This document shows positions 5,001 through 16,648 of a stretch of 39,993 nt of DNA, in pieces; positions within the stretch are counted from its first letter, which is position 1, and each line of letters begins with the position of its first letter. This stretch comes from a virus (lineage: Duplodnaviria; Heunggongvirae; Uroviricota; Caudoviricetes). The stretch is taken from positions 1 through 39,993 of the IMG/VR virus record IMGVR_UViG_2623620506_000005; one strand, given 5' to 3'. The notes under the pieces are model-generated. The model was not told the DNA's origin. It saw only the letters and a program-made list of their open reading frames with translations, and did not search any database. Position numbers and translations under genes: made by a program.

Positions 5001-7799
5001 ATGTGGGGAAGTGAAAACAAACAAAATCTGGACGTACTGGATCCTGTGCAGTTGGTGCGTATCGAAGCGGTACACCGGGGGTTCCTTTACCAGCATCTTT
5101 ACGCTGTAGGCTGCTTACTTTTGGCGCAGAGGGCTGCTATGGACTCAGTAACTGTCGAGCTTGATGAGGATATTGAGCTGAAATCCAAACAGGAACGTCT
5201 CTACATTCAGGTTAAAACCCGTTCAAAGCCTATTATGCCCAACGATGTGTCGGGGGCTCTGGAGCGATTTGTAAAGCTCAGAAATGAGCATACTTCGGCA
5301 AACCGCGAAGGGGTGGCTTCTTTTGTGATTATTGTAAACCAGGCGCCTGGACCGCTGCTTCAGAAGATGATTGACGATAAAAAGCTTCCTTCTGATGTTC
5401 TTATTGTCTGGCCCCGGTCGACAGCTGGACGTCACCCGGCACTTCCGCCCGCATGGAGTACTCTGGCTGATGCGGCCACATGGTGTATCGCAGAAGCAGA
5501 AAAGCTGAAATTTTCACTATTGTCCCCAGAATCCTTGATTTGGAAGTTAGCAGGGTTGGTTCAGCTTGCCGCCACCGGAGGCGATACCAATGGACAACAT
5601 ACGTTTTTCACGGAGGAACTTACTGAACTATTTGAACAGTTGATCGTTCAGCTACAGGACTTTCCTGCACCACCAGCACTGTACCGCCCACAAAACGAAG
5701 AACCTTCTCTCACATCTGGTGAGCGGATCCGTATCCTTTGTGGACTCTCAGGTGCAGGCAAGACAGCGTGGGCCGCACAGGCCGCATTACACTCCACTGC
5801 ACTTTGTGCTTATTACGACACCGGTGATCTTCCCGGTCCAGCTCTGGCCAGTACGCTGGTGCGGGAGATGGCTGCTAGATTTACAGCCCGTGACCAAGAC
5901 GGTTTGCGCAGGATTTTGCTCCCCGGAGCCAGTGGTTTTGAGGCTCTTAGGAGTTTTGATACCTACCTGAAAGAGCAGGGTACCACCTTGGTGCTGGTTC
6001 TGGATAACGCCCATCGTGTACCTGCGGAAAATCTACGGGATGTTCTGAATGCAACTACACATATTCGTTTTGTGCTGTTGTGCCAGCCTCACGAAAACGT
6101 TCGCGAACTGGAGGTCATGACGGGGCTACAGCGCGAGGGCCTGCAGGGATGGAATCTCGATACGGTAGCTGTCGTTGTAAACGATATCGGAGGATTTGCC
6201 ACCGCTATGGGATACGAGCAGCTACGGGCTTACACTGGTGGTCTTCCCCTGTATGTAGAGAGCGCCGCAAAAATCGCCGTTTCTGACTATGAGCGTAGTG
6301 TCGATGCTCTGTGTGCTGAACTCCAGCAACAAACCCATACTGCGGAAACCGCCCAAGAAATTATTCTGTCACGTGTATTTCAGGGATTTGAATCACTACT
6401 TCAGAGCGCGCTGGCATTGTTCAGTCTCTCTGACGTAGGGCTGAGTCGCGAAGAGATTTCTACGCTCCTAATCAATTCGCTGAACATTTCACCAAGCAGT
6501 GCGGCTTCTTTAATTAGGAAAATGCGCGCTACTGGCACTATTGAAATTTATGGAAACCAGACCCTGAAGGTACATGATGCTGTCAGGGGGCTAGGACTGC
6601 AACATCTGGAACTGATGGATCAGGGTATATCGAACAAAGCGCTACTAGCGCTGAAAGACCTTTTAGTTGAAAGTCTTCATAATACCCGCAATACAAAACG
6701 GTTATCGTTGTTGACTCAACTTTATATTAAGCTTAATGATGTCACGACGTTGATCGAACTCTCAGGCCAAGAAATGTTTTATGAGATGGGCGTGACGGTC
6801 GACATTCTTGCAAGCTTGGAGCGTGCTGCAACATCGGACTTATTGGGACCTGTTCATAAATTCTGGGCATTGGATGGCCTTGTTTTCGTTGAGCTTAAAG
6901 ACGGAATATCCGACCACATTGCTCAGAGGTTAAACATCATGGGAGCTTTACTTGCGGAGCACAAGTTCGGCTATCAAGAAGAGATGGCCTATGCAATGAA
7001 ACGAATGTTATTTTCGGCAGAAAGCAATGATGCACGAGAAGTTCAAAAGCTGGCACAGGAAGTCCGCCCCCAACTCCCAGATGAAGAACATAAACGCATC
7101 TTTGACTACAACCATGCCATTGCACTCTGGAGATTAAAAAAACTCAAGGATGCTGAAACATTAAGCTGTAATGTTATACAAGGGTACTATTCTTTATTTG
7201 GTATCACACCTGCTGATGTCATAGGAAAAAACGCCGACGCATTATGGAAAACTATTAATCATTCCGAAAATATGCAGGAACACTTTAAACATATGGCTGA
7301 TGCTCTGGAGTTGCTGGCCAGAATTCGTGATGCGCAGGGAAAACTGTCACCATTACTGCGTATTCATTCGATGAAGTTCTACAATCTGGCCATGGCCCCG
7401 GAATCCATGGTCAGGGTGGGCCAAGATCTGGCGGATGAGTTTGTTGCCATAAAGGATTACGACGGTGCCAAGGAAGTCATGGAGCAACATGTCCTGCCGG
7501 TTGTCAATGAGGCAGGTCTAGTACATCGACTGATTCAGGTTCGAAGCCAGTACGCAGTCATATTGGCACTATCGGGTCAGCATAAAGCAGCTGATGTCGA
7601 AATGCAGCGCCTTGCTCCCTATATCGAAGGCCTCACAGGTGTACAGCGTCAAGAAATCCAAAATCAATCAAATTACATCGTACAGCTTGCCCATAAAGCA
7701 GCAAAGACTAAATTAACTGAAGTTTTTGGTGCGGTCGGCCGGAATGAACAATGCCCCTGTGGCTCGGGAATAAAGTACAAAAAATGTCACGGTGCCTGA
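5001..7799 (+). CDS. large multidomain protein: N-terminal PD-(D/E)xK-like nuclease domain (Cap4/DUF4297-like), P-loop NTPase, helical repeat region, C-terminal SEC-C zinc motif; candidate anti-phage defence protein
   Basis: 932 aa, AAGGA RBS. Residues 53-72 VELDEDIEL...IQVK (acidic cluster plus QxK); Walker A GLSGAGKT (248-255); Walker B-like LVLVLDNAH (331-338); about 550 aa helical region; C-terminal CPCGSGIKYKKCH. Confidence 0.7.
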   Translation: MWGSENKQNLDVLDPVQLVRIEAVHRGFLYQHLYAVGCLLLAQRAAMDSVTVELDEDIELKSKQERLYIQVKTRSKPIMPNDVSGALERFVKLRNEHTSANREGVASFVIIVNQAPGPLLQKMIDDKKLPSDVLIVWPRSTAGRHPALPPAWSTLADAATWCIAEAEKLKFSLLSPESLIWKLAGLVQLAATGGDTNGQHTFFTEELTELFEQLIVQLQDFPAPPALYRPQNEEPSLTSGERIRILCGLSGAGKTAWAAQAALHSTALCAYYDTGDLPGPALASTLVREMAARFTARDQDGLRRILLPGASGFEALRSFDTYLKEQGTTLVLVLDNAHRVPAENLRDVLNATTHIRFVLLCQPHENVRELEVMTGLQREGLQGWNLDTVAVVVNDIGGFATAMGYEQLRAYTGGLPLYVESAAKIAVSDYERSVDALCAELQQQTHTAETAQEIILSRVFQGFESLLQSALALFSLSDVGLSREEISTLLINSLNISPSSAASLIRKMRATGTIEIYGNQTLKVHDAVRGLGLQHLELMDQGISNKALLALKDLLVESLHNTRNTKRLSLLTQLYIKLNDVTTLIELSGQEMFYEMGVTVDILASLERAATSDLLGPVHKFWALDGLVFVELKDGISDHIAQRLNIMGALLAEHKFGYQEEMAYAMKRMLFSAESNDAREVQKLAQEVRPQLPDEEHKRIFDYNHAIALWRLKKLKDAETLSCNVIQGYYSLFGITPADVIGKNADALWKTINHSENMQEHFKHMADALELLARIRDAQGKLSPLLRIHSMKFYNLAMAPESMVRVGQDLADEFVAIKDYDGAKEVMEQHVLPVVNEAGLVHRLIQVRSQYAVILALSGQHKAADVEMQRLAPYIEGLTGVQRQEIQNQSNYIVQLAHKAAKTKLTEVFGAVGRNEQCPCGSGIKYKKCHGA

Positions 7800-8969: not shown

Positions 8970-10019
8970 GTGCGGGTATTACTTCGACCTGTTCTGGTAC
9001 CGGAACTCGGGCTGGTGATCGTTAAGCCGGGCCGTGAATCCATGCCGGTATTCCACAATACCCGGGTACTGGTGGAGCCGGAACCGAAAAGCATGCGTGG
9101 TCTGCCGTCCGGAGTTGTTCCTGCCGTTCGCCAGCCGCTGGCGGAAGATAAATCATTACTGCCATTTTTCAGCGACGAACGGGTGATTCGTGCTGCCGGC
9201 GGCGCTGGTGCACTGTCTGACTGGCTCCTGCGTCATGTTAAATCCTGCCAGTGGCCTCATGGTGACTATCACCACAGCGAAACCGTCATACATCGTTACG
9301 GCACCGGCGCGATGGTGTTGTGCTGGCACTGCGACAACCAGCTGCGTGACCAGACCTCAGAATCACTTGAGCAACTTGCTCAACAAAACCTGACAGCATG
9401 GATGATTGACGTCATCCGTCACGCAATAAGCGGTGCGCAGGAGCGGGAATTATCGCTGGCTGAATTATCCTGGTGGGCTGTCTGCAATCAGGTGGCGGAC
9501 GCACTACCGGAGGTAGTATTACGTCGTTCTCTGGGGTTACGTGCGGAAAAAATTCGCTCGGTGTACCGCGAAAGCGACATCATACCGGGAGAGCAGACAG
9601 CCACCAGCATACTGAAGCAGCGCACAAAAAATATTGTGCTATCGCCTCACGTCCACCAGCAACAGAACTCACCGCAGGAAAAGGCGGTGGTCAGCATTGC
9701 CGTTGATCCGGAGTCTCCGGAATCTTTCATGAAACGACCTAAACGTCGCCGTTGGGTTAACGAGAAATACACGCGCTGGGTGAAGACACAGCCGTGTGCG
9801 TGTTGTGGTAAGCCAGCCGACGATCCCCATCACCTGATTGGTCATGGTCAGGGCGGAATGGGGACAAAATCCCACGATATTTTCACGCTACCGCTGTGCC
9901 GGGAGCATCACAACGAACTTCATGCGGATCCGCTGGCGTTCGAAGAAAAGCATGGTTCTCAGGTTGATTTAATTTTTCGTTTTCTTGATCACGCCTTTGC
10001 AACCGGTGTGCTCGGGTAA
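8970..10019 (+). CDS. DUF968-family prophage protein (YdfU-like) with C-terminal HNH-like Cys/His motif
   Basis: GTG 8970 after GGAGG RBS; 349 aa; C-terminal CACCGKPADDPHHLIGHGQGG...CREHHNELH; typical neighbour of rusA/Q in lambdoid prophages. Confidence 0.7.
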   Translation: MRVLLRPVLVPELGLVIVKPGRESMPVFHNTRVLVEPEPKSMRGLPSGVVPAVRQPLAEDKSLLPFFSDERVIRAAGGAGALSDWLLRHVKSCQWPHGDYHHSETVIHRYGTGAMVLCWHCDNQLRDQTSESLEQLAQQNLTAWMIDVIRHAISGAQERELSLAELSWWAVCNQVADALPEVVLRRSLGLRAEKIRSVYRESDIIPGEQTATSILKQRTKNIVLSPHVHQQQNSPQEKAVVSIAVDPESPESFMKRPKRRRWVNEKYTRWVKTQPCACCGKPADDPHHLIGHGQGGMGTKSHDIFTLPLCREHHNELHADPLAFEEKHGSQVDLIFRFLDHAFATGVLG

Positions 10020-10031
10020 AAGAGGTTACTG

Positions 10032-10403
10032 ATGCGTATAGAGTTTGTTTTGCCTTACCCGCCGACGGTGAACACCTACTGGCGTCGTCGTGGCAGCACA
10101 TATTTTGTATCAAAAGCCGGTGAGCGTTATCGCCGTGATGTGGCGCTTATTGTTCGCCAGCAGCGGCTGAAATTAAACCTGTCCGGAAGGCTGGCGATAA
10201 AGATTATTGCAGAGCCACCGGATAAGCGCCGTCGTGACCTGGACAATATTCTGAAAGCACCACTGGATGCGCTGACGCATGTGGGACTGCTTATCGATGA
10301 CGAGCAGTTTGATGAAATCAATATAGTACGCGGTAAGCTCGTTCCTGGTGGTCGGCTGGGCGTGAAGATTTGCGAAATTAGAGGTGATAGTAATGGGGCG
10401 TGA
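10032..10403 (+). CDS. rusA: RusA-type Holliday junction resolvase
   Basis: 123 aa; RRRDLDNILKAPLDALT catalytic region and overall similarity to remembered E. coli RusA. Confidence 0.85.
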   Translation: MRIEFVLPYPPTVNTYWRRRGSTYFVSKAGERYRRDVALIVRQQRLKLNLSGRLAIKIIAEPPDKRRRDLDNILKAPLDALTHVGLLIDDEQFDEINIVRGKLVPGGRLGVKICEIRGDSNGA

Positions 10404-10764
10404 TATGTATGAGGTTTTAGACCGCTGGGGGGCATGGGCTGCAGCAGAAAATAGTGGTGTCGACTGGCAGTCGATAGCGGCAGGCTTCAAGGGGCTTCTA
10501 CCACACGGTAAAAAGTCACGCCTCCAGTGCGATGATGATGAAGGAATTATGATTGATGGATGTGTGGCCCGGTTGCGGAAATATAAGCCAAAAGAATATG
10601 AGCTGATAATTGCACACTTTGTCATCGGGATTTCGCTCCGTACAATTGCAAAGAAGCGGAAGTGTTCAGATGGTACAATACGAAAAGACATGCAAACAGC
10701 AATGGGGTTTATTGATGGCTGCTTGTCATTTTTCATTTACTACAATGACTTAAGTTCTATGTAA
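10393..10764 (+). CDS. Q: late-gene antiterminator Q (QuuD/phage-82 type)
   Basis: ATG 10393 (RBS GAGGTGA); VLDRWGAWAA...SIAAGFKGLL...CDDDEGIMIDGCVARL matches remembered QuuD-like antiterminators. Confidence 0.75.
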   Translation: MGRDMYEVLDRWGAWAAAENSGVDWQSIAAGFKGLLPHGKKSRLQCDDDEGIMIDGCVARLRKYKPKEYELIIAHFVIGISLRTIAKKRKCSDGTIRKDMQTAMGFIDGCLSFFIYYNDLSSM

Positions 10765-10769
10765 AATCG

Positions 10770-10805
10770 TTCTACTTTCCCAACTTTTATGTGTATATAA
10801 TACCA
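10770..10805 (+). promoter_or_regulatory. candidate late promoter (PR'-like) downstream of Q
   Basis: Perfect TATAAT at 10796-10801 in the 51-bp gap between Q and the next gene; weak -35. Confidence 0.3.
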
Positions 10806-10815
10806 GGATAAAGTA

Positions 10816-11868
10816 ATGGAGAATCTTGTGAACATTCAGGCAGTAGACATTTTTTGTGGTGCGGGGGGCTTAACTTTTGGGCTAAAAAAAGCCGGGATTG
10901 AGGTTTCTCATGGTATTGATATTGATGAATCCTGCCGTTTTGCTATTGAGAGCAATAATCCTTTAACGCAGTTCATTAATCAGTCAGTTACAGAACTGCA
11001 ATCCTGCGATGTGTCTGCTATGTTCAGGGAAGGAAATATTAGATTGCTTGCTGGATGTGCTCCTTGCCAACCGTTTTCCAAGTATCGTAATCCAAATAGC
11101 CGTAAAGACGATACAAAGTGGCGTTTGTTATATGAGTTTCAAAGGCTTGTAAGTGATGTCATGCCAGAGCTTGTGACGATGGAGAATGTTCCTCAACTTA
11201 GAAACCATAAGGTTTTTGAAGGGTTTGTTAGTGCATTAAAGACTCTTGGATATCATTTGTGGTACGACGTTGTAAGATGTTCTGAGTATGGCTTACCTCA
11301 AAATAGACGTAGATTAATTCTAATTGGTTCCCAATTGGGGCCGATCAGCCTTGATCAAAAAAAAGTTAGCCGTAAAGTTACTGTTAAGGATGCTATTGGT
11401 AGGTTGCCAAAAGTAGGGGCAGGTGAGAAGCTGGAAAGCGATCCCTTGCATCGTTCGCCTAAATTGATGGATATCAATCTTAAACGAATCATGCATTCTT
11501 TACCTGGTGGTACATGGGATGACTGGCCTGAAGAAATTAGAGCAGACTGTCATAAAAAGAATTCAGGTGCTACCTATAAAAGCGTTTATGGACGGATGGT
11601 TTGGGACGATACTAGCCCTACGATAACTACCCAGTGTTATGGATATGGAAATGGACGATTTGGCCATCCTGAGCAAAATCGCGCCATAACTTTGCGTGAA
11701 GCTGCGATTTTGCAATCCTTTCCAATGGATTATAAATTCCTTGACAAGGAGACGCCTTTTTCATTCCAAAAATTGGGGACAATGATTGGAAATGCTGTTC
11801 CCCCTATAATTGGTCAGATAATAGGGGAAACATTTATCAGACATGTTGAGGGGATAAATACCCGTTAG
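10816..11868 (+). CDS. DNA (cytosine-5)-methyltransferase
   Basis: Motif I FCGAGG, motif IV PCQPFS, ENV motif, C-terminal GNAVPP. Confidence 0.9.
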   Translation: MENLVNIQAVDIFCGAGGLTFGLKKAGIEVSHGIDIDESCRFAIESNNPLTQFINQSVTELQSCDVSAMFREGNIRLLAGCAPCQPFSKYRNPNSRKDDTKWRLLYEFQRLVSDVMPELVTMENVPQLRNHKVFEGFVSALKTLGYHLWYDVVRCSEYGLPQNRRRLILIGSQLGPISLDQKKVSRKVTVKDAIGRLPKVGAGEKLESDPLHRSPKLMDINLKRIMHSLPGGTWDDWPEEIRADCHKKNSGATYKSVYGRMVWDDTSPTITTQCYGYGNGRFGHPEQNRAITLREAAILQSFPMDYKFLDKETPFSFQKLGTMIGNAVPPIIGQIIGETFIRHVEGINTR

Positions 11869-12526
11869 AGGTAATATAATTTTCTGTTGAGTTGATTAAT
11901 AAACGCAAATATAGATCAATTCTTTCTGACCTCGATTTGACTTCTTCTAAAGGGTCTATTTGACCTTTTTTAGAAAAGCTGGTACTTCCATGTGCCAGCT
12001 CATTTCTGATATCTTTAAGTAAATCTAAGTCAACGCCATTTCTACACTCTGGTGAGTTTGCAACAGTTATTCCGTAAGCTTGTGTTATTTTGTGCAATAC
12101 AGACTTGCAAACATTACCATTGAATTCTTTACGTATGTTTAATGAGGCTGAAATGATCCTTTTAGATATATCGGAACCAATTTTTTGATAAAGAGATTTT
12201 CCCGATTCATTATCTGAAATGATACGGTGCAAGATATTTACTTGGAATTTCTCCCTGAGTGATGCGTAATTTACTTCATTATCTTGCAAATGGTCATAAA
12301 TTGACTCAATGCATCCTCTGGCAGTGTTTTCAACCTGATTGTACAGCATCATGTGCACGGATGATTTTAAAATGTTAACCCTAAGGGTATTAGATTCTAT
12401 TTCATCTTTATGCGTTTGCTGATCTAAATGCTGAGTCTGAGCCTCTAAAGATGACGCAAGAGAAAGCAATTCCATAATATCTCTTGCTCTTTCTTCGTAT
12501 TCATCTCTTAAATCAATCAAACTCAT
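11837..12526 (-). CDS. HEPN-domain protein (MAE_28990/MAE_18760-like), putative RNase partner of the DUF262 protein
   Basis: 229 aa; Rx4H motif RNELAH (R174..H179) near the C-terminus; start 2 nt downstream of the DUF262 stop. Confidence 0.6.
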   Translation of the reverse strand: MSLIDLRDEYEERARDIMELLSLASSLEAQTQHLDQQTHKDEIESNTLRVNILKSSVHMMLYNQVENTARGCIESIYDHLQDNEVNYASLREKFQVNILHRIISDNESGKSLYQKIGSDISKRIISASLNIRKEFNGNVCKSVLHKITQAYGITVANSPECRNGVDLDLLKDIRNELAHGSTSFSKKGQIDPLEEVKSRSERIDLYLRLLINSTENYITSNGYLSPQHV

Positions 12527-12528
12527 AG

Positions 12529-13686
12529 TTACATTCCTAATAATTTATCTTTGACATAAAATATTCTGTTTTTGAGTTGGCTGGTGTTGTTGGCACTATC
12601 AGCAGTAACTATGGTTTCAAATTCCTCCCCAAACAGCCAGTCTCCTACAGGAATAACCGGAGCCTGTAGATGTGGATTGGCTTTTAAGGCAAGAGCAGTT
12701 CCCACTGCTATGGCTTCGTATCTTGCACGGGGGGTGGTTTTACTTGTTGCTGTCTTTTTAAACCCCATAGGAAAATGAGCATCTACAAAAGCAAGCATGC
12801 TCTCAAAATCATGTTTAAAATTGTCAACATCTTGTTGTGTAACCCTTTCGGCTTGAACATTAAGATAATTGTCAATAAAAGGAGCGACATAACCCTTATA
12901 ATTTTCTAAATCATTTAAGTATGCAAAAAATCTCAAAACTAACTCACGATGATCGCCATTCGAACGCTTCCTGTCTGATAATGGAGCTAGGCTAGCGAAA
13001 AGTGGATTTGTTGAGCAAGGGGTCACAACGTCTCTATAGAAAATTGAAGTAGCCGCATCTGAACCATGTCTAACCTCCATAGCTTCCAATCTCTTAACAC
13101 CTGAGTTTATCCTTTCGAATAAATCTCTCCTATGTTGCTCCTCAACATCACCTTTCAATTCAATAAATCTTAGTGATGCCCTTAAAAATCGTCTTTGGCG
13201 ACTAGCCAAAAGATCTGAAAATTTGAAACCCTCTAAACTTTTGAGTTCTTTTAAATCTTTTAATTCAAACTGATTGTTCCAAAAGTAATAAATTGAGCGA
13301 ATCCTTTGTGAGCCGTCAATGATTTCTACCCGACCATCCAATTCTGGATCTTCATTAAATACGTCTGCAATGTAAAGATACGGTATTGGAAAATCTAATA
13401 ATATGCTTTCGATAAATCGAGAGGCTGTTTTGATATCCCATTTGTAGTCGCGTTGATAATCAGGAATAAAAAGTTCGTTTTTGTCAGTTTCAAGATTATC
13501 GCCATACTTTTGTACAATTACTTCAACGGTCCATTCACGTACGTTGTATCCAATGCTTCTCTGTGCGAGCCTAATCTCGTTGTCGGCAGAGGTGACCAAG
13601 GCTGCGATTTCAGCCTTTTTTCTGTTTTTCGCGTTTTCATCTTGAATCTGATCAAGCTCTTCTTTAAGTTCTTTGAGTGTAGTCAT
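12529..13686 (-). CDS. DUF262 (ParB/Srx-like NTPase-nuclease) domain protein
   Basis: 385 aa; DUF262 hallmarks IPDYQRDYKW (76-83) and IIDGSQR (122-128). Confidence 0.8.
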   Translation of the reverse strand: MTTLKELKEELDQIQDENAKNRKKAEIAALVTSADNEIRLAQRSIGYNVREWTVEVIVQKYGDNLETDKNELFIPDYQRDYKWDIKTASRFIESILLDFPIPYLYIADVFNEDPELDGRVEIIDGSQRIRSIYYFWNNQFELKDLKELKSLEGFKFSDLLASRQRRFLRASLRFIELKGDVEEQHRRDLFERINSGVKRLEAMEVRHGSDAATSIFYRDVVTPCSTNPLFASLAPLSDRKRSNGDHRELVLRFFAYLNDLENYKGYVAPFIDNYLNVQAERVTQQDVDNFKHDFESMLAFVDAHFPMGFKKTATSKTTPRARYEAIAVGTALALKANPHLQAPVIPVGDWLFGEEFETIVTADSANNTSQLKNRIFYVKDKLLGM

Positions 13687-13712
13687 ATAACAGTTCCTTT
13701 AATTGAATATGG

Positions 13713-13741
13713 ATTGTAAGAAAACTATAACGCGTACGCAA
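13713..13741 (-). promoter_or_regulatory. candidate sigma70 promoter for the DUF262-HEPN operon
   Basis: Minus strand: TTGCGT (-35) - 17 bp - TACAAT (-10), about 25 bp upstream of the DUF262 ATG and its AAAGGA RBS. Confidence 0.4.
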
Positions 13742-13934
13742 AAAATATTGTATCGTGTTAAGAGTGGTTGCTTCGCCACGCAGCTTAAAACCGCCGCAGA
13801 GCGGGTTTTTTTATGCCTGAAAATTGCTGCAGTACGTTAAACGCGCTGGTGGTTGCGAATACTGATCTTTCAGCTTGCTGGCTTTTTGGACAAGAGTTAT
13901 TGGTATGTCACGTTAACCAGAAAAGGGAAAAGAC

Positions 13935-14132
13935 ATGCTAAAACAGCAGGATATGACTGAAACCGCCAGAGTGGTATTTAATGAATTAAGCGTCACCGAA
14001 CCGGCGACCGTCGGGGAAATTGCGCAGAATACTTACCTTTCACGCGAACGCTGTCAGTTAATACTGACCCAGCTTGTTATGGCGGGTCTGGCAGATTATC
14101 AGTTCGGTTGTTACAGACGCCTTCCTCAGTGA
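13935..14132 (+). CDS. small winged-helix-like DNA-binding protein (possible regulator)
   Basis: 65 aa, RBS AAAAGGGAAAAG; HTH-like PATVGEIAQNTYLSRERCQLILTQLV. Confidence 0.4.
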   Translation: MLKQQDMTETARVVFNELSVTEPATVGEIAQNTYLSRERCQLILTQLVMAGLADYQFGCYRRLPQ

Positions 14133-14282
14133 AGGCTTTTTTATTTGTGGTAATGGGCGGCTGGTGGGTGTTAGCGGCACCTGCCAGCCATCTGCTCATG
14201 CGTTGGGGTCACAAGCAAACCTCAGGCCCATCTGCTTTGCGCAAAAGCGGTATGAGCCTATCAGAGAAGTGCTTATTGATCT

Positions 14283-15329
14283 ATGGCTAATACTGTAAAA
14301 ATATCCAGTTGTGAGTTAATCAACGCTGATTGCCTGGAATTTATCCAGACCTTACCGGAAAACTCTGTCGATCTTATAGTCACAGACCCGCCATACTTTA
14401 AAGTGAAACCCGAGGGCTGGGATAACCAGTGGAAGGGCGACGATGATTATCTGAAATGGCTGGACCGATGTCTGGCGCAGTTCTGGCGGGTACTGAAGCC
14501 TGCCGGAAGTCTCTACCTGTTCTGTGGTCATCGCCTGGCATCTGATATCGAAATCATGATGCGTCAGCGCTTTAATGTACTGAACCACATTATCTGGGCG
14601 AAGCCGTCCGGACGCTGGAACGGATGCAACAAGGAAAGCCTGCGGGCGTATTTCCCGGCAACAGAACGCATTCTGTTTGCAGAACATTATCAGGGGCCAT
14701 ACCAGCCCAAAAATGACGGCTATGCGGCAAAGGGGCGCGAGCTAAAACAGCACGTCATGGCCCCGCTGATTTCTTACTTTCGTGATGCGCGTGAATCACT
14801 GGGAATAACGTCAAAACAGATAGCGGAAGCCACCGGAAAGAAAAACATGGCTTCGCACTGGTTTGGTACCAGTCAGTGGCAGTTACCGAACGAGGGTGAT
14901 TACAACAAATTGCAGGAGTTGTTTGCGCGTGTTGCGGCAGAAAAACATCAGCGCGGGGAACTGGAAAAGCCACACCACCAGCTGGTCAGCGCATACAGTG
15001 AACTGAACCGGCAATATGCCAGCCTGCTGGCAGAGTACAAATCTTTACGGCGTTATTTTTCCGTATCGGCTGCTGTTCCTTATACGGATGTCTGGACGTA
15101 CAAGCCAGTGCAGTATTATCCGGGCAAACATCCCTGTGAAAAACCAGCGGATATGTTACGTCAGATAATTACCGCCAGCAGTCGTCCGGGAGACTTGGTT
15201 GTCGACTTTTTTATGGGGTCAGGCTCCACAATTAAAGCCGCAATGACGCTGGGGCGTCGGGCAATTGGTGTGGAACTGGAAAAAGAGAGATTTAATCAAA
15301 CTGTAACTGTAATAGAAAATAATCTTTAA
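14283..15329 (+). CDS. DNA N6-adenine/N4-cytosine methyltransferase (beta-class, DPPY)
   Basis: 348 aa; DPPY at 35-38; C-terminal AdoMet motif VVDFFMGSGST. Confidence 0.85.
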   Translation: MANTVKISSCELINADCLEFIQTLPENSVDLIVTDPPYFKVKPEGWDNQWKGDDDYLKWLDRCLAQFWRVLKPAGSLYLFCGHRLASDIEIMMRQRFNVLNHIIWAKPSGRWNGCNKESLRAYFPATERILFAEHYQGPYQPKNDGYAAKGRELKQHVMAPLISYFRDARESLGITSKQIAEATGKKNMASHWFGTSQWQLPNEGDYNKLQELFARVAAEKHQRGELEKPHHQLVSAYSELNRQYASLLAEYKSLRRYFSVSAAVPYTDVWTYKPVQYYPGKHPCEKPADMLRQIITASSRPGDLVVDFFMGSGSTIKAAMTLGRRAIGVELEKERFNQTVTVIENNL

Positions 15330-15494
15330 ACACGCTTTCTATTATTTATTAATTATTGAAACAATAAAAACATATGAGTATATTTACAAATATTGACATT
15401 GATTTTTATTGAAAAAATATCTTATCTCGTTAATATTCTCACCCGGTTCCGAGGGGGTATTGCTGGGGCATTTTATTTTTCTTGAGGAACCATT

Positions 15495-15570
<76 letters not shown>

Positions 15571-15573
15571 TAT

Positions 15574-15648
<75 letters not shown>

Positions 15649-16014
15649 GCAGAGGACGATGCTAGGCCGTTTCAGGCACTGACACATTATATGTGTGGGA
15701 TGTTTTTAACCTAACTCCTTACCACATCCTGTTCTGTAATGAATATTATTTATTACGGTACCAGTGCTGTTTTTTTACAATAGTGGAATGGTGCATTACT
15801 GGTGGAGATTTGTATTTCCTGGCAGGGCTGGTAATGTATCATTCCGGTGTTGTAAATGACACCCCAGAGACGTTCCTCAGTGCGAGGGTGGTTGAAAGAG
15901 TCGGTTTTGCGGGAAACCACAGCATCCATGCAGGACTGGATGTTTCGGGAGGCACCCGACGTCTCTGGTCATAATAAAATCATCGTTTTCTCTTCATGCC
16001 ATTTTATGCCATAG

Positions 16015-16040
16015 ACCGCCACGCCAGGCGGTTTTTTTTT
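16015..16040 (+). terminator. rho-independent terminator
   Basis: ACCGCC-loop-GGCGGT hairpin followed by nine T. Confidence 0.5.
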
Positions 16041-16222
16041 ATTCAGAATTCAGTATTTATGCGGCTCGCTACGGCGGGCCTTTTTCATATCCGCGCCACG
16101 CCCGGCGAATATCAAAAACCACAGAGCCTTTCAGGGGTGAGCTTACGGGATGGTCAGTGTGACTTTCTCTGTGGGCTGGTCACCCCCGGGCGCAGGCTCA
16201 CCCACTAAAAGGAAAAGTCACG

Positions 16223-16648
16223 ATGTTTGGTATTTTCAAAAAGAAAACCCGCAAGGCCATTACTGAAGTGAAGAAGATGGAGAACCGCGACGCAGTGGAG
16301 GCGACTGTCTGGGGCGCGTATTCCATAGCATTCGCCGACGGCACCTGTGATGCGAAAGAAATCGCTGTGCTGGAGAAAACCATTGCAGCACTTCCTGCTT
16401 TTGCGCCGTTCTCGGGTGAGATTGCACAAATGAGTGCAAATATCCGCGCCCGTTATGAAGCGTCGCCGCGCTCTGCCAATGCTGAAGCCCTTCGCCAGCT
16501 GGCTGATGTTGCCGGTACTGATGATGCAGTTAATGTACTGTGCCTGTGTCTGGATATCGCAGACCAGGATGGCATTGGTCCGGATGAAGAAGCGCAGCTC
16601 AAGAAAATTGCTCAGGCGCTGCAGTTACCGCTGGAGCAGTACCTGTGA
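16223..16648 (+). CDS. TerB-like (tellurite-resistance TerB fold) protein, tentative
   Basis: 141 aa, RBS AAAAGGAAAAG; acidic helical protein with ADG...E and DIADQDG motifs; assignment from memory. Confidence 0.4.
   Translation: MFGIFKKKTRKAITEVKKMENRDAVEATVWGAYSIAFADGTCDAKEIAVLEKTIAALPAFAPFSGEIAQMSANIRARYEASPRSANAEALRQLADVAGTDDAVNVLCLCLDIADQDGIGPDEEAQLKKIAQALQLPLEQYL

Follow-up and report, generated by a model that had tools for sequence, protein, structure and literature searches.

The segment at positions 10816-15329 of a 39,993-nucleotide stretch of viral DNA (IMG/VR record IMGVR_UViG_2623620506_000005, class Caudoviricetes; the whole stretch is called the window below) carries two DNA methyltransferase genes and, between them, a pair of genes encoding DUF262 and HEPN proteins. 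We found that this segment consists of two independent modules. The left one, at about 10765-13727, is a horizontally acquired and mobile three-gene unit formed by a C5-cytosine DNA methyltransferase (C5-methylase) and the DUF262-HEPN pair. We call it the cassette, or the trio when the three genes are meant. The right one, at 13728-15648, is phage backbone, and includes a small gene for a protein of 65 residues, a beta-class N-methyltransferase (N-methylase) and two transfer RNA (tRNA) genes.

Genes and signals at the locus

The segment has five substantial open reading frames (ORFs), each with a clear family match according to the ORF list and Pfam. Together with the features that border them, they are arranged as follows.

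10384-10764, plus strand: antiterminator Q of the Q21-type family (PF06530, E 5e-46), left border of a cargo hotspot
10796-10801, plus strand: TATAAT, -10 box of the candidate methylase promoter of the cassette, read from the sequence; weak -35
10816-11868, plus strand: C5-cytosine DNA methyltransferase (PF00145, E 1.8e-53)
11837-12526, minus strand: HEPN protein of the MAE_28990 family (PF18737 HEPN_MAE_28990, E 1.3e-15; PF18735, E 8e-8)
12529-13686, minus strand: DUF262 (GmrSD_N) protein (PF03235, E 1.8e-25)
13741-13713, minus strand: candidate promoter of DUF262-HEPN, with -35 TTGCGT (13741-13736), 17-bp spacer and -10 TACAAT (13718-13713)
13728-13812, plus strand: conserved promoter-leader-terminator element, candidate pR'/tR', right border of the hotspot
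13935-14132, plus strand: 65-residue ORF (phrog_331, E 1.4e-37)
14283-15329, plus strand: beta-class N-methylase (PF01555, E 2.7e-45)
15495-15570 and 15574-15648, plus strand: tRNA-Thr(UGU) and tRNA-Gly(UCC) (ARAGORN; Rfam 73.8 and 65.6 bits)

All the genes that a preliminary description had named in this segment are present where it placed them, and their catalytic motifs are intact. It had also reported a convergent HEPN-DUF262 operon and the lack of an evident type II restriction endonuclease, and both observations hold. The DUF262 stop codon lies 2 bp before the HEPN start, which makes the two genes an operon, and this operon is placed tail-to-tail with the C5-methylase gene, the 3' ends of the convergent ORFs overlapping by 32 bp. 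Searches of ORFs, Pfam and PADLOC models revealed neither a further long ORF nor a recognisable restriction endonuclease in 10816-15329, and no ORF of the segment has the domain of a restriction endonuclease of known deoxyribonuclease (DNase) fold.

The description had treated the segment as a single island in which two methylases flank the pair. This view had to be abandoned, because the trio occurs without the N-methylase, and the 65-residue ORF, the N-methylase and the tRNAs occur without the cassette in Shiga toxin (Stx) phages and in SfV. Only this right-hand part of the segment is shared with the deposited phages phiP27, several Stx2 phages, SfV and 1720a-02. The cassette has no match in 50,697 deposited phage genomes, save short stretches within the methylase gene. 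The G+C content is 34-42% across the C5-methylase, HEPN and DUF262 genes, against 50-57% in the flanking phage backbone, and 48-53% over the 65-residue ORF and the N-methylase.

Conservation and distribution of the cassette

The DUF262 protein has widely distributed homologues, 2,885 of them at E <= 1e-5. A scan of a single genome for each species gave 80 loci, which span Gammaproteobacteria, Cyanobacteria, Planctomycetes, Bacteroidales, Verrucomicrobiota and others, and all their ORFs were then searched with profiles. HEPN adjoins DUF262 in 77 of these loci, the remainder being two loci at a contig edge and one (L063) with a disrupted DUF262 ORF. A C5-methylase is directly adjacent in 45 of the 72 assessable loci, where it is convergent (36 loci), upstream and co-directional (eight) or downstream and co-directional (one). 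The methylase lies farther off in three loci, and eight of the 80 contigs were too short to assess.

The three genes are inherited together in viral and host genomes alike. The trio is complete in all 52 assessable loci of IMG/VR viral contigs; Q lies directly upstream of the methylase in 26 of them, and the N-methylase and the 65-residue ORF are present in only 12. The cassette is found in 107 of 5,426 complete Escherichia coli genomes, clinical strains of sequence type 131 (ST131) included, and is full-length in every one of them. Two alleles occur there, with identities to the window of about 97.8% and about 87%. In Klebsiella pneumoniae, prophages carry the trio after Q (L007, L008, L010) or after other early genes (L009), followed by HicAB or lysis genes and with no second methylase. 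Some loci are chromosomal. For example, the order DUF262 then HEPN, with a convergent C5-methylase, lies between housekeeping genes in the chromosome of Photobacterium damselae. In Pseudomonas sp. M47T1 (L006, 2003-4827) the trio is about 1.2 kb from McrBC, with a Bro-N gene between them. McrBC restricts DNA containing methylcytosine, and thus the motif methylated by the trio is presumably not a McrBC target in this strain.

The C5-methylase has the motifs FCGAGG (residue 13), PCQPFS (83), ENV (123), QNRRR (162) and GNAVPP (325). Its true start is probably the GTG at 10828 and not the ATG at 10816, since the former is the RefSeq start in E. coli and the ATG reads ACG in Klebsiella. We compared the window with 48 non-redundant three-gene loci from across phyla. 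The median identity to the window proteins is 50% for the methylase, 44% for DUF262 and 26% for HEPN. The partner methylase is at least 44% identical to that of the window in 39 of the 48 loci, which represent many phyla, and only a handful of loci have an unrelated C5-methylase (25-30% identity). Identity across these 39 orthologues is 56% in the target-recognition region (residues 176-290) and 47% in the N-terminal catalytic part, and a recognition region kept in this way implies that the methylation motif is conserved. The motif itself is not assignable from structures, because the best sequence matches among solved ones (DNMT1, M.HaeIII and M.HhaI) are confined to the catalytic core. Methylases located beside the pair at random, or the diversifying ones of restriction-modification systems, would not be expected to keep their recognition region like this, which speaks for a functional link with the pair. 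On the strength of this conservation, we propose that the partner methylase is a dedicated orthologue, the putative modification subunit of the cassette. The correlation of identity matrices is r 0.92 between DUF262 and HEPN and r 0.54 between DUF262 and the methylase; neither value was reached in 2,000 permutations.

The two proteins of the minus-strand operon are divergent in sequence and conserved in their motifs. The HEPN protein scores 58.7 bits against PF18737 (cut-off 26.8) and has the family-conserved motif RNELAH at residues 174-179, of the Rx4-6H type. Although the 49 homologues compared share only about 25% identity overall, each of R174, N175 and H179 is kept in at least 95% of them. 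HEPN domains are mostly ribonucleases (RNases), and HEPN proteins are common toxins (PMC3710099). By analogy, we propose that this protein is the effector nuclease, probably an RNase. The DUF262 protein has the motifs QRDYKW (residue 78), DGSQR (124) and FERIN (190), and these motifs of its nucleoside triphosphatase (NTPase) domain are at least 95% conserved across homologues despite low overall identity. Its AlphaFold2 model (mean predicted local distance difference test score, pLDDT, of 82.5) shows a helix at the N-terminus, then a ParB-like core, and a C-terminal half made up entirely of helices. No nuclease domain is present in this model, and Pfam matches are limited to residues 68-206. 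Foldseek searches with the model gave BrxU, SspE and ParB CTPases as best matches; these are weak globally (best E 2.8e-3, template modelling score, TM, 0.32), and speak for the fold family of the modelled protein, not for a specific mechanism. Among PADLOC models, DUF262 matches NsnA (E 1.1e-45) and PD-T4-2_A (PDLC04027, E 7.8e-27). The PADLOC matches to the trio are partial and concern single genes, and no system was called. DUF262 proteins were described as NTPases or sensors in GmrSD, BrxU, SspE and Menshen (PMC10952713, PMC12065111). The DUF262 protein of the cassette would likewise be a sensor of DNA or of its modification, made of a ParB-like NTPase and a helical domain of DNA-binding type.

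The insertion site and its candidate transcription signals

The Q protein is 27% identical to that of phage 21 over 79 residues (pairwise E 5e-8) and 58% identical to that of phage 1720a-02. The space between Q and the 65-residue ORF holds different content in each phage examined. The site is empty in 1720a-02, where no more than about 20 bp separate the Q stop codon from the start of a conserved non-coding element. In phiP27 (L003 1739-2968, L22) it is occupied by a GIY-YIG/T5orf172 protein, annotated as 'GIY-YIG nuclease family protein' and homologous to PD-Lambda-1 (PADLOC E 2e-89), a protein validated in defence. In Stx2a_WGPS2 (L002 3362-4925) it has two minus-strand genes encoding proteins of 179 residues, with a weak match to a membrane protein, and 343 residues; neither has a convincing Pfam match or a PADLOC match. 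These two genes are a candidate for a previously unknown defence pair, and they apparently use the same TTGCGT -35 box as the DUF262-HEPN operon. Since the cargo differs between phages and is lacking in 1720a-02, the site bounded by the Q stop codon and this element is a hotspot for cargo. Additional genes for defence might be sought at this hotspot in Q21-type lambdoid and Stx phages.

The conserved element at 13728-13812 starts with TAACGC (13728-13733), a 17-bp spacer and TATCGT (13751-13756). These are followed by an invariant GTTAAGAGTGG, a GTGG..CCAC hairpin, and a last hairpin with a run of seven T that ends at 13812, which puts the predicted start about 50 nt before this end. It lies downstream of differing cargo in four phages and directly after the Q stop codon in 1720a-02. 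The roughly 95 bp that follow Q in 1720a-02, and likewise the element of the window, share the layout of the annotated pR'/tR' of phage 21, with a leader of about the same 50 nt in the window. In the annotation of the phage 21 record, the pR' -35 box begins 7 bp after the Q stop codon, a Q-binding element lies in the spacer, and the pR' transcript runs for only 50 nt, to a terminator. The -10 box retains TAnnnT in the copies that can be aligned directly; in 1720a-02 it is CAGTAT, which still has the key A and T. The last hairpin differs in sequence among loci, yet it stays a hairpin with a T-run. We suggest with moderate confidence, from this comparison, that the element is pR'/tR' and that it lies downstream of the cassette.

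In the window, the stem of the terminator (13790-13812) has a C-to-A change, AAAACCGC where other copies have AAACCCGC, and because this introduces a mismatch the terminator may be leakier than in related phages. The folding energy of 13740-13830 is not significant (z 0.39), and the support for a terminator is the variation among the other copies only. We recognised no Q-binding repeats in 13728-13812. A generic scan for promoters and terminators found 15 promoter-like sites, against 13.4 in shuffled sequence, and missed both the terminator of the element and the DUF262 promoter, which were identified by eye and by comparison. At a permissive threshold, Rfam matched the two tRNAs and otherwise gave chance matches in 10000-16500, none of them covering the conserved element.

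The position of the candidate pR' bears on how the cassette is expressed. The preliminary description had placed a late promoter directly after Q and the C5-methylase on the Q-dependent late transcript. The TATAAT at 10796-10801, which follows Q, accompanies the cassette in the prophages of Klebsiella, even in L009, where the gene next to it upstream is not Q. This conservation makes it unlikely to be a late promoter, and we infer from it that TATAAT belongs to the methylase's own promoter. It is also improbable that the C5-methylase is expressed late under the control of Q, because the best candidate for pR'/tR' lies downstream of the cassette. The candidate DUF262-HEPN promoter is kept in the cassette-bearing prophages of E. 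coli and Klebsiella. In 13713-13756 this promoter and the candidate pR' overlap back-to-back on opposite strands, and their -35 boxes adjoin at the palindrome ACGCGT. The binding of RNA polymerase at the two sites might be mutually exclusive.

The backbone module requires less explanation. The 65-residue ORF is also found in phiP27, WGPS2, 1720a-02 and SfV, where it always precedes a methylase of the M.EcoGII type (L001-L003, L091). Its only Pfam match is a weak one to TrmB (E 0.0026, below the cut-off), and it is possibly a winged helix-turn-helix protein, as judged from its sequence. It could be a controller of the otherwise toxic methylase. The N-methylase has 348 residues and the motif order of the beta class, with DPPY at residue 35, then the recognition domain, and FMGSG at residue 310. 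It is identical to M.EcoGII at 294 of 347 residues (85% over the full length), in a comparison with a reference sequence that was machine-read from the supplement of PMC11551740 and may contain small errors. It is equally similar (85%) to the methylase of phage 1720a-02, which the M.EcoGII paper cited as closely similar to M.EcoGII (PMC5778455). According to that paper, M.EcoGII acts on adenines irrespective of the surrounding sequence, does harm when constitutive and is silent in the lysogen, and M.EcoGI too is non-specific and silent there; the same was reported for M.EcoMV, an orthologue from ST131 with low-level transcription (PMC4659465). We take the N-methylase to be an orthologue of M.EcoGII and M.EcoGI, and its non-specific N6-adenine activity and its silence in the lysogen are assumed by homology. 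It is an anti-restriction enzyme of an already known kind, and calls for no new explanation. The description's assignment of an anti-restriction role to both methylases stands for the N-methylase and is not favoured for the C5-methylase, which travels with DUF262 and HEPN.

The description had likened the place of the segment to that of stx. Actually, stx lies downstream of the methylase and the tRNAs in Stx phages, and the equivalent position in the window is taken by a TerB-like gene encoding 141 residues (16223-16648, plus strand; PF05099; phrog_632 'tellurite resistance'). Two strong terminator-like hairpins (16013-16034 and 16063-16080) are found just upstream of this gene. The tRNAs of the window, Thr(UGU) and Gly(UCC), stand where related E. 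coli and Stx prophages have Ile, Arg and Arg.

Farther upstream, ahead of DUF968, RusA and Q, an ORF for 932 residues (5001-7799, plus strand) has a Cap4/LmuA-like nuclease domain at its N-terminus (PF14130 E 5.7e-6; PADLOC LmuA E 5.7e-7), a SEC-C zinc motif at its C-terminus and, at residues 239-364, a P-loop NTPase (AAA_22). With this STAND/Avs-like architecture it appears to be another defence gene of the prophage.

Proposed function of the cassette and its relation to known systems

We suggest, with a probability only a little better than even (about 0.55), that the trio is a methylation-gated, restriction-modification-like defence system, with a ParB-like NTPase as sensor and HEPN as effector, carried as prophage cargo. 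The C5-methylase would mark the DNA already resident in the cell, that of the host and that of the prophage, at a single short and conserved motif. Such 5-methylcytosine would be suitable as the mark of self because the methylase is dedicated and its recognition region conserved. The DUF262 protein would read the DNA or its modification state and, upon meeting unmarked incoming DNA, license the HEPN nuclease, whose action, probably on RNA, would stop the infection or kill the infected cell. Two comparisons speak by analogy for a role in defence: the hotspot also holds the homologue of the validated PD-Lambda-1, and a related pair, PD-T4-2, has itself been validated. The resemblance to PD-T4-2 also renders plausible the preliminary description's view of the minus-strand genes as a defence module. 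Its fallback, a restriction-modification-like unit including both methylases, turns out to be the better reading for the C5-methylase and does not extend to the N-methylase.

The same description had suggested that the two strands serve opposite purposes in lysogeny and in lytic growth. This is possible, by means of early rightward read-through from upstream of Q. Since the cassette lies between the Q stop codon and the candidate pR', it would be expressed in the lysogen from its own promoters. In lytic growth, rightward transcripts reading through from the early operon would cover the C5-methylase gene in the sense direction, favouring its expression, and the effector operon in antisense. The N-methylase of the backbone would hypermethylate progeny DNA against host restriction. 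A more specific version can be drawn, in which the restriction arm is not a DNase: the NTPase would read C5-methylation of one motif, unmethylated DNA would trigger abortive infection by the HEPN RNase, and the overlapping divergent promoters at the pR' junction, together with antisense read-through, would silence the effector and boost the methylase when the phage enters lytic growth. This detailed version is tentative and, taken as a whole, rather doubtful.

Several points weigh against the methylation-gated defence. The DUF262 enzymes studied so far recognise modified DNA, not unmodified DNA. The DUF262-HEPN pair has no adjacent methylase in 21 of the 72 assessable loci, most of them from one cyanobacterial clade (Microcoleus and relatives; L059-L074 and related loci), where the pair is next to clpB; two other loci, L056 and L060, have a methylase of the MmeI/Eco57I type, and L056 and L050 a large protein with a helicase domain. 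The cloned 1.8-kb region of PD-T4-2 protects without a methylase (PMC9519451), and the HEPN protein of the window has no match to the PADLOC model PD-T4-2_B even at E up to 10. The identities of the methylase follow those of DUF262 far less closely than the identities of HEPN do. The assignments of promoters and of pR' come from comparisons, with weak -35 boxes and, for the terminator of the window, a mismatched stem without significant folding energy. Finally, every step of the mechanism is a proposal from sequence and analogy. As the methylase-less loci and PD-T4-2 show, the pair can act and is tolerated in the absence of a linked methylase, which suits a modification-dependent, type IV-like sensor equally well.

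The first alternative, which was the main reading of the preliminary description, follows from these points. Both methylases might be orphan anti-restriction enzymes, and DUF262-HEPN an independent, modification-dependent (type IV-like) defence that merely sits beside the C5-methylase. This would agree with what DUF262 proteins are known to sense, namely modified cytosines in GmrSD and BrxU and phosphorothioate DNA in SspE (PMC10952713), with the protection that PD-T4-2 confers against T4 without a methylase, with the methylase-less loci, and with the N-methylase, which truly is an orphan anti-restriction enzyme. Yet, orthologous C5-methylases recur beside the pair across phyla, in three gene orders, and in every assessable viral locus and every cassette-bearing E. 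coli genome. Chance hitch-hiking does not explain such recurrence. The trio is also found at non-phage chromosomal sites, where a phage anti-restriction role makes no sense. We regard this alternative as unlikely.

Another explanation, which we hold to be distinctly less probable still, is that the trio is mainly an addiction module. It would stabilise the prophage or island by post-segregational killing, with defence against phages secondary or absent: upon loss of the cassette, methylation would be lost and the longer-lived DUF262 and HEPN proteins would kill the cell. The convergent, overlapping layout is that of many type II restriction-modification and toxin-antitoxin loci, the cassette has no partial deletion in the 107 E. 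coli genomes, and HEPN proteins are frequently toxins (PMC3710099). Against this, the hotspot is shared with the PD-Lambda-1 homologue, McrBC is a neighbour in Pseudomonas, and the related PD-T4-2 was validated as defence. Besides, addiction and defence are compatible. As for a methylase that acts on RNA like Dnmt2 and shields cellular RNA from the HEPN RNase, in an RNA-level toxin-antitoxin, some enzymes of the C5-methylase fold do methylate tRNA and HEPN domains are indeed mostly RNases, but the complete set of DNA C5-methylase motifs, the large target-recognition region, the DNA methylases that are the best matches among solved structures, and best PADLOC matches to the DNA methylases of type II, DISARM and Druantia systems make this very improbable.

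Should the trio work as the methylation-gated defence that we propose, it would add a widespread type of defence that current catalogues do not call as a system. DNA methylation would then gate a HEPN effector through a ParB-like NTPase, linking the logic of restriction-modification to abortive infection. The partner methylase is conserved, its recognition region included, and a single motif may therefore be used throughout the family, which would make the system unusually easy to test.

The closest precedent in the literature is an in silico one. Anantharaman et al. (2013) listed, in one line of a table, an operon of MAE_28990 HEPN, ParB-like (DUF262) protein and DNA methylase (PMC3710099). 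The cassette of the window has all three parts, a PF18737 HEPN with an adjoining DUF262/ParB-like protein and an adjoining DNA methylase, and is a member of this operon type. In the literature that we searched, this survey is the sole paper naming MAE_28990, and there is no experimental study of the methylase-linked trio. Beyond the 2013 account, our results add that the methylases are mostly orthologous with a conserved recognition region, that about a third of loci have no methylase, and that the trio is prophage cargo at a defined hotspot.

Among experimentally studied systems, PD-T4-2, a DUF262 and HEPN pair, confers protection from T4 on its native strain, E. coli ECOR65, as well as on K-12 (Vassallo et al. 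2022, PMC9519451). Like the minus-strand genes of the window, it is a two-gene operon; the PD-T4-2_A model matches the DUF262 protein, and its reported HEPN family, PF18735, matches the HEPN protein (8e-8). It is smaller, with both ORFs within about 1.5 kb; the clade of the window comes with a conserved methylase, and DUF262 scores higher to NsnA than to PD-T4-2_A. NsnA, the best PADLOC match of DUF262, belongs to Menshen (NsnABC) and has the same build of ParB-DUF262 and helical domain. The ABC-ATPase NsnB and the effector NsnC of Menshen are absent, HEPN and the C5-methylase being the only neighbours of DUF262. GmrSD, BrxU and SspE share the N-terminal DUF262 NTPase (QR..W, DG.QR, F...N) followed by a helical domain, but have a DUF1524 His-Me finger nuclease. 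Neither Pfam nor the structural model revealed such a nuclease fused or adjacent to DUF262 in the window, where the nuclease is a separate HEPN protein. SspE with SspABCD is a precedent for a modification module that works with a DUF262 sensor, although the modification is phosphorothioation and that of the cassette is C5-methylation. We considered filing the cassette under Menshen, GmrSD or PD-T4-2 and rejected all three, as a defining component is absent in each case.

The backbone methylase is matched more simply, as M.EcoGII and M.EcoGI (Murray et al. 2018, PMC5778455) are also beta-class and prophage-borne, with no notable difference. The cassette has parallels with type II restriction-modification systems with convergent methylase and restriction genes, since its C5-methylase gene meets the presumed restriction genes tail-to-tail, and the three genes are mobile and always inherited as a whole. 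It differs from them in its restriction side, an NTPase sensor and a HEPN protein, and in a methylase specificity that is apparently conserved, not diversified. Overall, the trio is the methylase-linked form of the validated DUF262 and HEPN kind, and its operon type was already noted in silico in 2013.

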